Shown: positions 1 through 64,000, counted from the stretch's first letter. The stretch is DNA of 64,000 nucleotides from a virus (IMGVR_UViG_3300024269_000017); one strand, 5' to 3'. Program-made: numbers and translations. The notes: generated by a model from the letters alone, not told the origin.

Positions 1-1
1 A

Positions 2-427
2 AGCGAATCGGAAGCGAAGCAGGATGCCGAAGCTACCATCAAAATGTGGATGACCACCGAAGGCATGACAAGGGAATTTGCGGAAGCCAGCTGGATTGAA
101 GAGCAGGAAGATGCAGACCCCGAATTGCTGAAACAGATGGAAAAGCAGGCGAAGGAATCTGGCGCAACAAAGGTCAAGGCAAAGCGTGCCCCGAATTACA
201 GTCTGGAAGGACAGAAAAAGCGGGAACGCAAGCCCAACGAAGAAAAGCGTTCACTGATTGAACAAATCGCCAATGCAATGGAAAGTTTTCATCACATGGA
301 TGAAGAAATTCCTGCTTCTGGTGTGGATTTGGTCGAAATTGTGAATCCTGAACGAGAAATCACCTTCAAAATTGGTGAAAATTGCTACAGTGTGACCCTT
401 ACCTGCCATCGCAAGCCGAAAAAATGA
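2..427 (+). CDS. hypothetical protein, 5'-truncated (frame open to window start; K/E-rich)
   Basis: ORF 44..427 continues in frame upstream to position 2 without a stop. TGA stop at 425-427. Confidence 0.4.
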   Translation, partial: SESEAKQDAEATIKMWMTTEGMTREFAEASWIEEQEDADPELLKQMEKQAKESGATKVKAKRAPNYSLEGQKKRERKPNEEKRSLIEQIANAMESFHHMDEEIPASGVDLVEIVNPEREITFKIGENCYSVTLTCHRKPKK

Positions 428-522
428 CAAAATGGGCGAGAAATCGCCCATTTTTTGCTGTTTTTGTCCGGTTTTGTGCGGTTTTACTAGAAAAATCGCA
501 TAATTTTTGTTGATTTTGCCTA

Positions 523-551
523 TTGACAAATGCGGCGGGCTGTGGTATAAT
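523..551 (+). promoter_or_regulatory. consensus sigma70 promoter (TTGACA-N17-TATAAT)
   Basis: ttgaca at 523-528, 17-nt spacer, tataat at 546-551. Lies in an ORF-free region. Confidence 0.55.
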
Positions 552-60256: not shown

Positions 60257-60421
60257 TTTAGGTCGATGCCAGCAATGTGGAGTGGGCATTTTAACCTTAT
60301 TTAAAATAAATAAAACCATTCTTGATACAGAAACAAAAGAATGGATTATTTTCGGCGAGATAAAATGCCCTGATTGTGGAGCAGAATTTATATGTGAGCT
60401 TAAAGGAGTTTCGTTTCTATT

Positions 60422-61051
60422 ATGACGATTGCATATGTAAAAAATATGAGCAAAAAGTTTTGGGGACACTTGCGGACGGTTCAGACCCACCGCAAGTGGG
60501 TCCGCCATTACTGTTTTGCATTGGACATGCCGATTCAGGGTATTCTGCACGACCTTTCTAAATATAGTCCTGTTGAATTTTGGGAAGGCGTAAAATATTG
60601 GCAGGGCAACCGCTCTCCTATTGATGCTTGCAAGGAAATCAATGGTTATTCTATGGCTTGGTTCCATCATCGCGGCCGCAACAAGCATCATTATGAATAT
60701 TGGTGTGACAACTTTGATAAGGGTTGTACCACTAATTTGATGCCGAAAAAATATTTTATGGAGCTGGTTGCTGACTATCTTGGTGCTGGTCATGCATATT
60801 ATGGTGATGATTTCACTTTCACCAAAGAGTATGAGTGGTGGCAGAACAAGAGGAAGAATCCTCTCAAGATGGACGAGCGTCAGCTTGTAATGTTGGATAC
60901 TATTTTCCGCAGTCTTGCGGAAATGGAAGATCCTCGTTGGACGACCATGTGGAATAATATGACTCCTGAAGAGTATCTTGCAAGTCCGAGCGGTCGTATG
61001 ATGATTGAAAATGTATATGAAATGCACAAGGATGGAGTAAAATATGATTGA
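60422..61051 (+). CDS. hypothetical His-rich protein (WFHHRGRNKHHYEYW)
   Basis: 209-aa ORF. Motif resembles the 49292..49807 protein. Confidence 0.5.
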   Translation: MTIAYVKNMSKKFWGHLRTVQTHRKWVRHYCFALDMPIQGILHDLSKYSPVEFWEGVKYWQGNRSPIDACKEINGYSMAWFHHRGRNKHHYEYWCDNFDKGCTTNLMPKKYFMELVADYLGAGHAYYGDDFTFTKEYEWWQNKRKNPLKMDERQLVMLDTIFRSLAEMEDPRWTTMWNNMTPEEYLASPSGRMMIENVYEMHKDGVKYD

Positions 61052-61640
61052 GATCTATACTGATGGCAGTGCCTCCAAAAATCGTTCTGGTTGGGGTTTT
61101 GTTGCCCTGGTAGACGGTGCCAAAGTGTACGAAAGAGCTGGCACCGAACATCAGGGAGACACCAATCAAAAGATGGAGATTATTGCGGTCATGGAGGCTT
61201 GCGATTGGGCAGCTAATTGTGAGTATATTCATGATCACGACGTAACCATTTATTCTGATAGCGCATATGTTATTAACTGTTTTAAAGATAAATGGTTTGT
61301 TAACTGGGAAAATAATGGTTGGAAGAATGCAAAAGGAGAAACCATTGCTAATCTTTTGGAATGGAGATTTCTAATTAAGTTCTTCAAAATGCCCAACTTT
61401 AATTTTGAAAAAGTAAAAGGTCATGCTGGTCATATTCATAATGAACGTGCAGACTCTCTTGCTCAAGGTAAGGTTGAGCCAGATGCAAACACTTACTTGA
61501 CAAACAGTAAAAAAAATGATAGAATATATATTGAAGTAAGTGATATTTTCCTCAATTATGCAATGAAGAAAATCACTATTAAAGATGCAGTAATGAAAGT
61601 GGTAGAAATTATAAAAAGGGAGGGAAATATTGATGAATGA
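61044..61640 (+). CDS. rnhA: ribonuclease HI
   Basis: IEIYTDGS...EIIAVMEA...IYSDSAYV...HAGHIHNERADSLA. Confidence 0.8.
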   Translation: MIEIYTDGSASKNRSGWGFVALVDGAKVYERAGTEHQGDTNQKMEIIAVMEACDWAANCEYIHDHDVTIYSDSAYVINCFKDKWFVNWENNGWKNAKGETIANLLEWRFLIKFFKMPNFNFEKVKGHAGHIHNERADSLAQGKVEPDANTYLTNSKKNDRIYIEVSDIFLNYAMKKITIKDAVMKVVEIIKREGNIDE

Positions 61641-64000
61641 TAATATTGTTCTTACTCCTGTAGTGGGAGAAGTAGAGCAATCATTTCTCGACTATTCTCT
61701 TTCTGTCATTACAGATCGTGCAATTCCGGCAGTAGAAGATGGTTTAAAACCGGTTATGCGTCGTATTCTGTGGGAAATGCAGGAAGATGGCTTGGCGAGC
61801 AATAAACAGTATGTCAAGTGTGCAACTCCTGTTGGTAACACAATGGCTAAATATCATCCTCATGGTGATAGTTCAATTTATGGTGCTCTTGTTCATGCTT
61901 CACAGCCTTGGACTATGAGATACCCTCTAATTGATTTTCACGGTAATAATGGTTCAAGAGATGGTGATGGACCTGCGGCACATCGTTATACTGAGTGTCG
62001 TCTAAGTCAAATTGCTGAATCTACTCTTGAACATATTAAAAAGAACACTGTAGATTGGATTCCCAATTATAGTGAAACTGGTGAGGAGCCTGTTTATCTG
62101 CCAGGTCGATTCCCCAATCTACTTTGTAATGGTACTACTGGTATTGCAGTTGCTATGGCTTGTTCTTTTGCTCCGCATAATCTGAATGAAGTCATGGAAG
62201 CCGCACAAAAGGTTTTGACTGGCGATTATACTGAAGATGAACTTCTTGAGTGTATCAAAGGCCCTGATTTTCCTACTGGCGGTATTATTGTAAATCAGAA
62301 AGAACTGCGTGATGCATATCGAACTGGCAAGGGTCGAGTGCGTATTCGTGGTGAATATCATGTGGAATCCAAGAGCGGGCGTGATACTCTTGTTTTTGAT
62401 TCCATTCCATATAAGATTTCTAAGGAAAACCTCATTCTTGAAATCGACACTTTGTGTGAAGAGAAGAAGATTGAAGGTATTACAGAAATCAGAGACGAAA
62501 GTAATAAAAAGGGCGTACGATTTGTCATTGAACTTGCAAAAGGCATTAATGGCGACGTAATTGCTAATAAGTTATATCGTCTCACAGAGCTTGAAACTAC
62601 ATATAGCATCAATCAAGTTGCTCTTGTAGATAAAACTCCTAGACTGCTGAGTTTTAAGACTCTTGTTGAAAAATACGTTGAACATCAAGAAGATGTTTTT
62701 CTGCGTCGTTTAAATTATGAACTTGAAAAGCTGAAAGATCGTATTCATATCCTTCATGGTCTGGCAAAAGCGGTTGAAGATATTGATCATGTAATTCAGT
62801 TGATCAAGAGTGCAGAAAATTCTACTGACGCTAGCGTAAAACTGCGCGCCAAATATGGATTTACTGAAGTGCAGGCTAAAGCAATCTTGGATATGAAGCT
62901 GAGCAAGTTGGCTCATACTGAAAAGATTGCGATTGAAAATGAGCTAGAAGAGAAACAGAAAAAGGCTGACGCATTGATTATTTTGATTGAAAATCGTGCG
63001 GCTCGCTGTGTAGCTCTTTCTGGTGAGTTTACAGAGTTTGCTAAGAAGTTTGGTGACGCTCGTAGAACTACTGTAACTAACATTGAAATGACCGCGGAAG
63101 AAAAAGAAGTTGCGGAAATTGTTCCTGAGAATTGCGTAGTTGTGATTACTGAAGCTGGTAATATTAAACGCATTCCTGCCACTTCTTATCGTACTCAAAA
63201 GAGAAATGGTAAAGGTATTAAGAATCAGGATGAAGTAATTCAGAATGTAATTAAGACTAATACTATTGATAACCTGATGGTGTTCTCTTCTTTTGGTAAG
63301 GTATATCGACTTGCGGTAAATGATGTGCCAGTCGGCACTAATGCAACTCGTGGTACTTCTATTGAGACTCTTGTTGCCATGGATGTCGGTGAGAAATTTG
63401 TAACTTTGGCTTCTGTTGATCGCACTGCACCGAATGGTCAGTATGTGTGGTTCATTACTAAAAATGGTGTAATCAAAAAGACTGGTTTGTCTGAATATGC
63501 TGGCATGAAGCGCAAGACTGGTGTTATTGCGACGACTCTGCGCGAGGGTGATAGTCTGGTTAAGGTGTTTGTTGCTCCTGATTCTCAGCTGATTGTGTTC
63601 ACCAAAAATGGTATGGGATTAAGATTTGATGGTAAAAATGTCAGTGCATCTTCTCGTACTTCTATTGGTGTTAAAGCAATCAACATGAATGAGGGTGATT
63701 CTGTTGCAGATGTTGTGTATCTTTCTGGAGAGAAGGATATTATGATTTTTGCTCAGAATGGCATAGCTAAGAGAATACCATTGAGTGAATTTGTCTTACA
63801 GAATCGTGCAGGCAAGGGTTTAATTTGTCACAAACCTGGCGATGTGGTTGCGGCATGTCCTGTAAATGATGATCATATGATGCTTGTTGTTGGTGATGTA
63901 ACAAGTATTTGTATTTCTGCTTCTGATGTAACCGAAGGTAGCCGAGCAACTCAAGGCGTAATGGTTATTAAAGGAAGTAATATTCTTGGAGTAGCGAGGA
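61633..64000 (+). CDS. gyrA: type II topoisomerase subunit A (GyrA-like), 3'-truncated at the window end
   Basis: DGLKPVMRRILW...HPHGDSSIY...ECRLS N-terminal GyrA motifs. The ORF continues past 64000. Confidence 0.85.
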   Translation, partial: MNDNIVLTPVVGEVEQSFLDYSLSVITDRAIPAVEDGLKPVMRRILWEMQEDGLASNKQYVKCATPVGNTMAKYHPHGDSSIYGALVHASQPWTMRYPLIDFHGNNGSRDGDGPAAHRYTECRLSQIAESTLEHIKKNTVDWIPNYSETGEEPVYLPGRFPNLLCNGTTGIAVAMACSFAPHNLNEVMEAAQKVLTGDYTEDELLECIKGPDFPTGGIIVNQKELRDAYRTGKGRVRIRGEYHVESKSGRDTLVFDSIPYKISKENLILEIDTLCEEKKIEGITEIRDESNKKGVRFVIELAKGINGDVIANKLYRLTELETTYSINQVALVDKTPRLLSFKTLVEKYVEHQEDVFLRRLNYELEKLKDRIHILHGLAKAVEDIDHVIQLIKSAENSTDASVKLRAKYGFTEVQAKAILDMKLSKLAHTEKIAIENELEEKQKKADALIILIENRAARCVALSGEFTEFAKKFGDARRTTVTNIEMTAEEKEVAEIVPENCVVVITEAGNIKRIPATSYRTQKRNGKGIKNQDEVIQNVIKTNTIDNLMVFSSFGKVYRLAVNDVPVGTNATRGTSIETLVAMDVGEKFVTLASVDRTAPNGQYVWFITKNGVIKKTGLSEYAGMKRKTGVIATTLREGDSLVKVFVAPDSQLIVFTKNGMGLRFDGKNVSASSRTSIGVKAINMNEGDSVADVVYLSGEKDIMIFAQNGIAKRIPLSEFVLQNRAGKGLICHKPGDVVAACPVNDDHMMLVVGDVTSICISASDVTEGSRATQGVMVIKGSNILGVAR

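Follow-up and report, generated by a model that had tools for sequence, protein, structure and literature searches.

The present analysis deals with the use of the codon TAG and with an amber suppressor tRNA in the virus IMGVR_UViG_3300024269_000017, of which a stretch of 64,000 nt (hereafter the window) was studied at its full length. The window has a G+C content of 43% and its plus strand holds nearly all genes. Genes were called by an iterative codon-usage model with hand curation, which yielded 80 genes with a stop inside the window and a truncated gyrA gene. Annotation with Pfam and PHROG revealed FolD, a formate-tetrahydrofolate ligase (FTHFS), an S-adenosylmethionine (SAM) synthetase, a ThiF/E1-like protein, an RNA ligase, phosphoesterases, a polynucleotide-kinase-like ATPase, a flotillin-like protein, both topoisomerase II subunits and RNase H. 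The same scans detected no release-factor or aminoacyl-tRNA-synthetase domains among the window proteins. Moreover, the window contains a large tRNA array, which includes the suppressor with the anticodon CUA (Table 1). L-numbers designate metagenome contigs of the phage lineage or its sister strains.

Table 1. Features of the window that are discussed in the text (positions counted from the first letter of the window)
Feature	Position	Strand	Details
Early/middle gene block	1-64000	+	About 81 genes; TAG near-absent in frame as stop or sense codon; readable by the standard code and by code 15
Auxiliary metabolic genes	20591-21937, 21934-22191, 3904-4737, 56577-58238, 37183-38415	+	
Candidate open reading frame (ORF), 60 amino acids	10344-10529	+	Tandem TAG-TGA (10524-10529); gene also called on sister contig L006
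Long Rfam tRNA matches	18549-18674, 18681-18798, 19093-19207	+	115-126 nt, 41-47 bits, full model; no ARAGORN call
ParE-like ORF, 88 amino acids	18823-19089		
tRNA array, 33 genes including the suppressor	20407-37301 (17 kb)	+	ARAGORN, confirmed by Rfam tRNA matches; small genes and PD-(D/E)XK endonuclease genes interspersed
PD-(D/E)XK_5 endonuclease genes	24499-24930, 34579-35022	+	Scattered among tRNA genes
tRNA-Gln(CUG)	28811-28885	+	U1-A72, G2-C71, G3-C70, G73
Sigma-70-like promoter match	30207-30235	+	TTGATT-17-TG-TATAAT; 10 of 12 consensus positions, consensus match only
Amber suppressor tRNA, anticodon CUA	30275-30365	+	91 nt; ARAGORN; Rfam tRNA model, 53.3 bits, positions 1-71
cREC_REC gene homologue	30869-31183		Stop TAA
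ThiF/E1-like adenylyltransferase gene	32048-32758	+	236 amino acids; in-frame TAG at 32180-32182 (codon 45)
tRNA-Gln(UUG)	34166-34239	+	Acceptor stem UGGGGAU...AUCCCCA, G73
Partial Rfam tRNA match	35163-35227		
DUF2828/DUF7788 protein gene and neighbouring vault-like gene (823 amino acids)	39491-41005, 41583-44054	+	
YqeY-like protein gene	47227-47682	+	151 amino acids, free-standing, just upstream of the RNA ligase gene; Pfam PF09424, E = 8e-9, whole domain covered
Small ORF ending in TAG	55469-55705	+	70 amino acids to TAG (55679-55681) or 78 amino acids to TGA (55703-55705)
Perfect sigma-70 promoter	55697-55740	+	TTGACA-17-TATAAT, A/T-rich stretch upstream; before gene 55768-56235
gyrA	61633 onwards	+	Cut by the window end

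The first-pass annotation of the window had claimed that TAG almost never terminates a gene (about 1 of 75), that TAA and TGA account for about 60% and 38% of the stops, that a CUA suppressor is encoded and that a TAG lies inside an E1 motif. All four claims agree with our results. Among the 80 re-called genes, 47 (59%) end in TAA, 31 (39%) in TGA and 2 (2.5%) in TAG. If stops were drawn in the ratio of the trinucleotides TAA, TAG and TGA on the plus strand (12.6% TAG), two or fewer TAG stops would occur with a probability of 0.0016. By itself, the rarity of TAG stops in the window is suggestive. As a sense codon, TAG occurs only once among about 16,800 in-frame codons. Long ORFs joined by TAG on the minus strand between 61.7 and 64 kb were rejected as shadows of gyrA, a gene that continues past the end of the window.

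The single sense TAG is located in the ThiF/E1-like gene, inside the nucleotide-binding Rossmann motif IGVGGNGSYIAEFLAR*GCKKLIVIDFD (the asterisk marks the TAG). Matches of the protein in the PDB, namely UBA5, TcdA and MccB (E ~1e-9), align across the TAG, and the sister strain L100 has Gln at this position (FLARQGCKKL). Public records from contigs of up to 172 kb include the exact translation of the whole gene with Q in place of the TAG, and the standard-code call by JGI is a fragment of 187 amino acids that is found on 20 contigs.

The suppressor is 100% identical in nine other contigs from strains whose proteins are 10-25% divergent. It agrees with the Rfam tRNA model along its entire length, with a normal G18-G19 in the D-loop and TTCGAAT as the T-loop, and has an encoded CCA end. 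The acceptor stem (AGGGGAG/CUCCCCC) comprises an A1.C72 mismatch followed by G2-C71 and G3-C70, and the discriminator base is G73. An insertion of 18 nt in the variable region gives rise to a long variable arm of about 21 nt, so that the tRNA lacks the short variable loop (4-5 nt) that belongs to the class I architecture. After removal of the variable arm, the nearest tRNA in the window is tRNA-Gln(CUG), and the acceptor stem matches those of the phage tRNA-Gln genes and not those of its tRNA-Ser genes. The variable arm and the T-arm junction resemble the phage tRNA-Leu(UAG). G73 also occurs in the three tRNA-Ser genes of the window, and A73 is present in its tRNA-Leu and tRNA-Tyr genes. Recognition of tRNA-Gln relies on U35, on the 10-25 pair and on the discriminator base and acceptor stem; for the indirect route via glutamyl-tRNA synthetase (GluRS) and GatCAB, it is also important that the first pair is not G1-C72 (PMC9976931). 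The suppressor possesses a set of Gln acceptor identity elements, consisting of a weak or unpaired 1:72 position, G2-C71, G3-C70, G73, C34 and U35, which makes its charging with Gln plausible. About 40 nt upstream of the tRNA lies a match to the sigma-70 promoter consensus. The term 'variable arm' occurs in none of the phage-recoding papers that a full-text search brought up, though a long-arm gene is annotated in the phage Phass-1.

Exact-protein look-ups assign the window to a phage with abundant matches in the ENA, Logan and JGI assemblies, in which many contigs are 164-175 kb long. Since these contigs break at different points, the genome is, as far as assemblies tell, circularly permuted with a size of about 172 kb. 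The contig L001 (172,043 bp) is 99.2% identical to positions 48352-64000 of the window, and L105 is 100% identical to positions 61426-64000. Small early genes precede the window, and it is followed by genes for a ligase, GIY-YIG, YorF/YorH, DnaB, primase, RecJ, the Pol III alpha subunit, NrdD/G, dUTPase, GIY-YIG/NUMOD3 and RuvC, after which a module of about 60 kb is encoded by the opposite strand. This late module was read at both of its edges, where Yon-family virion proteins, portal, terminase, HNH endonuclease and a sigma-like factor are encoded (PHROG). Other routes to relatives were less productive. A megablast search of GenBank phages with 21 kb of the window gave no match, and in tblastn searches the topoisomerase II was at best 45% identical to proteins of GenBank phages. 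Scans of IMG/VR with a protein, with exactly 34 nt of the tRNA and with the primase together returned only one piece of 6 kb. Exact look-ups of proteins near the 5' end of the window retrieved at best contigs below 2 kb, and a homology query with two concatenated proteins found only homologues of the primase.

The use of TAG as a sense codon differs between the late module and the other genes. Ten of the 14 late minus-strand genes that were read (L013, L014) contain TAG in frame, with 29 TAG among 3,526 codons, and TAG makes up 17% of the Gln-type codons in these genes. Each TAG-bearing late gene has one to seven in-frame TAGs and is free of TAA and TGA; for instance, there are five in the terminase, seven in the portal and one in the sigma-like factor (L014, L013). 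L013 is located on the same contig as L095, which bears an identical suppressor. In the 49 early and middle genes outside the window, 15 TAG were counted among 10,292 codons, and all of them fall in five genes, i.e. two GIY-YIG endonuclease genes, the RuvC gene and two small genes. Thus, per 1000 codons the late genes have 8.2 TAG, the window has 0.06 and the remaining early and middle genes have 1.5. L105, which represents the window's own strain, has a GIY-YIG gene with five in-frame TAGs about 2.2 kb beyond the window end. Two of the TAG positions in this gene are occupied by Gln in sister strains, one as CAG in L011 and L012 and the other as Q in L009. The gene callers of ENA and Logan independently translate these contigs with TAG as Q, and the standard-code calls of JGI give fragments. 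The first-pass annotation had concluded from the window that TAG is avoided or recoded throughout the genome, and the essential late genes of the lineage, which carry many TAGs that align with Gln, bring this out.

To identify the amino acid specified by TAG, one scan of JGI metagenome contigs was carried out with a late protein, which yielded 80 related loci that were 42-92% identical. ORFs were called with TAG as a sense codon, 28 families were clustered, each family was aligned, and the residues opposite TAG were tabulated. In the resulting 412 alignment columns with TAG, Gln accounts for 23.5% of the opposing residues as compared to a background of 3.1% (7.6-fold). A mild enrichment is seen for Glu, Lys and His but not for Ser (0.76-fold). 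In the 87 columns with at least 80% agreement, the dominant residue is Q in 47, K in 12, E in 10 and S in one (binomial p = 4e-47). The most frequent codon opposite TAG is CAA and not CAG, and therefore a one-step mutation from CAG to TAG alone does not explain the pattern. The close relatives of the window phage behave in the same way, and in several columns of the terminase, the portal and the HNH endonuclease nothing or hardly anything besides Q and TAG occurs. Moreover, TAG is exchanged with CAG or Q between strains in a conserved context, for instance in the GIY-YIG gene and in the ThiF motif. As a stop in conserved genes, TAG was found in 7 of 525 cases in the recoded relatives versus 6 of 77 in the standard-code relatives, which are about six of the 80 loci that look standard-code (Fisher p = 0.003). 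Thus, frequent genuine TAG stops, which would have contradicted the first-pass annotation, are not seen in the recoded relatives. The alignments of the RuvC-like protein with PDB entries were too divergent to place a residue at the TAG. Furthermore, the GIY-YIG motif 'YVG*A' fits both Q and S and was not used as evidence. As judged from these comparisons, TAG means Gln, which corresponds to genetic code 15, because Gln is enriched opposite TAG and Ser is not and because some strains have CAG or Q where others have TAG.

Thus, we consider the window to be the early and middle region of a circularly permuted code-15 phage of about 172 kb that is related to SPbeta, to the Enterococcus phage EF1 and to Phass-1, with a probability of roughly 90%. 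In the proposed mechanism, the phage would encode one amber suppressor tRNA(CUA) within its tRNA array, which the host presumably charges with Gln, either by glutaminyl-tRNA synthetase (GlnRS) or by a non-discriminating GluRS together with GatCAB. This route of charging is presumed because the acceptor end resembles that of the phage tRNA-Gln and C34 and U35 are kept. As the suppressor builds up, UAG would be read as Gln, and the TAG-bearing late genes, such as those for the terminase, the portal and the sigma-like factor, would become fully translatable only afterwards. The same would apply to the few middle genes that contain TAG, i.e. those encoding RuvC, homing endonucleases and the ThiF-like protein. 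The early and middle genes, which are nearly free of TAG in both roles, would be read identically whether or not the switch has taken place. TAG would be shunned as a terminator, since it would be subject to read-through in late infection, and the two exceptions in the window have a back-up TGA one or eight codons downstream. We infer the charging enzyme, the timing and the regulatory purpose. A code switch that gates late or lytic genes and relies on the host GlnRS is the model of Borges et al. (bioRxiv 10.1101/2021.08.26.457843).

The two exceptions are small ORFs, which probably tolerate read-through because the second stop follows within one to eight codons. The first-pass annotation had named the ORF starting at 55469 as the single TAG-terminated one, with a read-through that adds only seven residues. 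The ORF and its TAG were borne out, but it is not the sole case, as the candidate ORF 10344-10526 ends in TAG as well. Read-through of the former would add Gln and seven residues, and the 78-residue product is on record in public gene calls; read-through of the latter would add one residue. The seven codons behind the TAG of the ORF at 55469 are 100% conserved in a strain that is 8% divergent overall. We rejected this conservation as evidence for read-through because the stretch overlaps the promoter of the next gene, a perfect sigma-70 promoter, and the identity is thus at the DNA level and says nothing on translation. The -35 box of this promoter holds the back-up TGA of the ORF.

Several observations weigh against the interpretation of the window as part of a code-15 phage. 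The avoidance of TAG, albeit strong, has exceptions, such as the two small TAG-terminated ORFs of the window. In L095-L099, the early cREC_REC gene (10001-10453), a homologue of which is present in the window, stops at TAG with a natural C-terminus. The strain of the window has TAA as the stop of this gene and L100 has a standard stop at the same place, and a gene caller using code 15 appended a tail of 44 residues that looks like junk to the protein of L095-L099. Hence, an early gene of these recoded strains probably has TAG as a genuine terminator. Furthermore, the insertion of Gln at UAG is deduced from sequence comparison and not from the protein level. The late genes were taken from sister strains with a DNA identity of about 88-94%, and about 40 kb of the genome were not seen. 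Neither a release-factor gene nor a synthetase gene was found in the approximately 115 kb examined, which bears on the competition with release factor 1 (RF1). Finally, the stop tally of the window differs only marginally (p = 0.046) from the rate of 7.8% TAG stops in the standard-code relatives (n = 77); the conclusion therefore rests on evidence outside the window. This marginal tally would also be in line with the view that TAG is rare due to composition or codon bias, for instance a host-inherited avoidance of TAG or CTAG, that there is no recoding, and that the CUA tRNA and the TAG in the ThiF-like gene are coincidental, representing a pseudogene or a leaky stop. Indeed, TAG is depleted in all frames: the plus strand contains 432 TAG trinucleotides as compared to 860 expected from the dinucleotides, and off-frame TAG within genes amounts to 231 versus 330 +/- 13.5 in codon-order shuffles. 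CTA, the reverse complement of TAG, is close to expectation on the same strand (778 versus 865). The off-frame depletion could be caused by a general avoidance of TAG or by selection against TAGs that are exposed by frameshifts. However, a bias of this kind is hardly reconcilable with essential late genes that carry one to seven in-frame TAGs and no TAA or TGA, with the conservation of these TAGs across independent assemblies and their alignment with Gln, with the Gln in place of the ThiF TAG in a sister strain and with the invariant suppressor, and we regard it as highly improbable.

The identity of the recoded amino acid has to be weighed as well. The combination of a long variable arm and G73, which the suppressor has in common with the three tRNA-Ser genes of the window, is in bacteria typical of tRNA-Ser and thus of charging by seryl-tRNA synthetase (SerRS), and it might be argued that the tRNA is supD-like and that TAG was recoded to Ser. 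However, Ser is not enriched opposite TAG and dominates only one of the 87 conserved columns, strains exchange TAG for CAG or Q and the acceptor stem fits the phage tRNA-Gln rather than tRNA-Ser. Charging by SerRS is therefore conceivable in formal terms but at odds with the comparative data, and a Ser code is very unlikely. ARAGORN labels the suppressor as tRNA-Pyl, a designation for which the CUA anticodon alone speaks. The tRNA-Pyl fold is characterised by a short variable loop, a small D-loop without G18-G19 and the lack of the T-psi-C consensus. In the suppressor, the D-loop and T-loop are normal and the variable arm is long; Pfam scans of the window proteins detected neither a PylS nor a PylBCD domain, and the columns opposite TAG show Q and not K. 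Pyrrolysine was thus rejected in favour of Gln, and its probability is next to negligible. As another alternative, the host itself might read TAG as a sense codon, and the phage would follow it without any switch during infection. However, TAG is nearly absent, as a sense codon and as a stop, from about 130 genes of the early and middle classes (about 81 in the window and 49 outside), late genes use TAG for 17% of their Gln codons, and the phage supplies its own suppressor. The split between early and late genes is as expected if early genes need to be readable by the standard code, and a host with a deviating code is barely credible.

We return to the phage-encoded switch, on which two further genes may bear. 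The gene for the sigma-like factor (phrog_5767; L014, 7167-8099, minus strand) at the edge of the late module contains an in-frame TAG, and several members of the family share TAG columns. Because the sigma-like factor itself has a TAG, one may speculate that late transcription depends on the suppressor. The window also encodes a YqeY-like protein. The YqeY domain strengthens the affinity of the Deinococcus GlnRS for tRNA-Gln (PMC1865053). It is also related to the C-terminal tail of GatB. By analogy, the phage protein could, speculatively, be an accessory for charging tRNA-Gln or the suppressor; a tblastn search of GenBank phages with this protein found three short unannotated contigs only. 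A more far-reaching proposal would be that a conserved class II-like long-arm suppressor with Gln acceptor identity, common to Phass-1 and possibly aided by YqeY, acts as a master timer of late transcription and translation via the TAGs in the sigma-like factor and the ThiF-like gene. We consider this proposal doubtful.

The window has additional features besides the use of TAG. The PD-(D/E)XK_5 endonuclease genes that are scattered among the tRNA genes have further copies in L095-L099. They differ in number and position between strains and take the place of the ThiF-like gene in some of them, which suggests that they are homing-type mobile genes that remodel the tRNA array. Upstream of the array, three unusually long Rfam tRNA matches flank a ParE-like ORF, and each of them has an insertion of 48-60 nt in or beside the anticodon arm. 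These matches may represent tRNA genes that contain introns or are otherwise expanded. Another, partial tRNA match is located within the array. The DUF2828/DUF7788 protein is encoded beside a protein with a major-vault-protein shoulder and repeat domains, and downstream of these are genes for an RNA ligase, a nucleotidyltransferase, phosphoesterases and a kinase-like ATPase. Judging from the domains, this stretch looks like an RNA repair or ribonucleoprotein module, which is unusual in a phage. Finally, the auxiliary metabolic genes of the window encode a CitMHS-family transporter, a chorismate mutase, FolD, the formate-tetrahydrofolate ligase and the SAM synthetase.

The assignment of code 15 has several implications. 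Annotation with the standard code fragments the genes of an abundant lineage of about 172 kb, as illustrated by the ThiF-like and GIY-YIG genes that are split in the JGI calls, and translation table 15 fits. A lineage related to SPbeta and EF1, probably of Firmicutes, would join the phages in which TAG changes its meaning in the course of infection. Furthermore, the window makes plain how the early genes are written, i.e. nearly free of TAG in both roles and with rare TAG terminators that are backed by a second stop. The combination of a Ser- or Leu-like tRNA body with a Gln-like acceptor end, which recurs in Phass-1, provides a concrete substrate for the co-option of host synthetases in a code change.

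Borges et al. (bioRxiv 10.1101/2021.08.26.457843) described a recoding of TAG to Gln for gut phages of the crAss-like, Lak, Garnet, Topaz, Sapphire and Agate clades, and it has been validated by metaproteomics in crAss-like phages (Peters et al., PMC9523058). Like in the clades of Borges et al., TAG is concentrated in the structural and late genes, the early genes can be read with the standard code, a tRNA(CUA) but no dedicated synthetase is encoded by the phage, TAG hardly serves as a terminator, and the source is a gut or animal metagenome. Unlike these clades, the window phage has an SPbeta-like gene content with Yon and Yor families and a genome of about 172 kb. Release factor 2 (RF2) has been reported in some Lak and Agate phages, and no release factor was seen in the portion of the genome examined here.

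Suppressors of E. coli offer a second point of comparison. Amber suppressors that are charged with Gln in this organism are supE, a tRNA-Gln with the anticodon CUA, and mischarging mutants of the su+3 tRNA-Tyr, which has a long variable arm. The tRNA-Tyr amber suppressors become Gln acceptors upon changes at position 1, 72 or 73, and the combination of CUA, G73 and a weak 1:72 pair steers charging by GlnRS even on the scaffold with a long variable arm. The suppressor of the window has the CUA anticodon with C34 and U35, G73 and the weak or unpaired 1:72 position in common with these tRNAs. The E. coli suppressors are laboratory mutants or act on single genes and read few stops, whereas here the sense TAG appears to be genome-wide.

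The closest described relative is Phass-1 (OQ749652.1; 135,976 bp), for which the genus Phassvirus has been proposed (Babkin et al. 2023, PMC10607447) and which the NCBI taxonomy places in the 'Caudoviricetes code 15 clade'. It is still a distant relative, as its terminase is 43.5% identical to that of the window phage. Phass-1 has TAG in 41 ORFs, three tRNA-Sup-CTA genes and no synthetase gene (PMC10607447). Both phages possess a large tRNA set, no synthetase gene was seen in either of them, and TAG stands against Gln in the terminase, the portal and other proteins. Phass-1's 88-nt tRNA-Sup-CTA is homologous to the suppressor of the window: it has the same variable-arm sequence CCCTCTGAAGG, and, as in the window suppressor, a long variable arm (CCCTCTGAAGGG) is combined with G73. 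Its acceptor stem differs from that of the window suppressor yet still pairs. The canonical 72-nt suppressor of Phass-1 has an acceptor stem (xGGGGAG/CUCCCCC) and a G73 that match those of the window suppressor. Two of the three suppressors of Phass-1 are located beside nrdD, whereas a single one was seen in the window phage, inside the main tRNA array, and the genome of the latter is about 36 kb larger. Relatives with the standard code are found among the SPbeta-like and Firmicutes phages, i.e. the Enterococcus phages EF1, H1 and VRE9_4, the Geobacillus virus E3 and the Brevibacillus phage Sundance, whose terminases are homologous to that of the window phage (33-48% identity). The Pfam families YonB/D/G and YorF/H are common to SPbeta-like phages and the lineage of the window, and EF1 shows no recoding of stop codons (PMC10607447). 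Thus, the window phage is a larger and distant addition to the already described recoding of TAG to Gln in phages.

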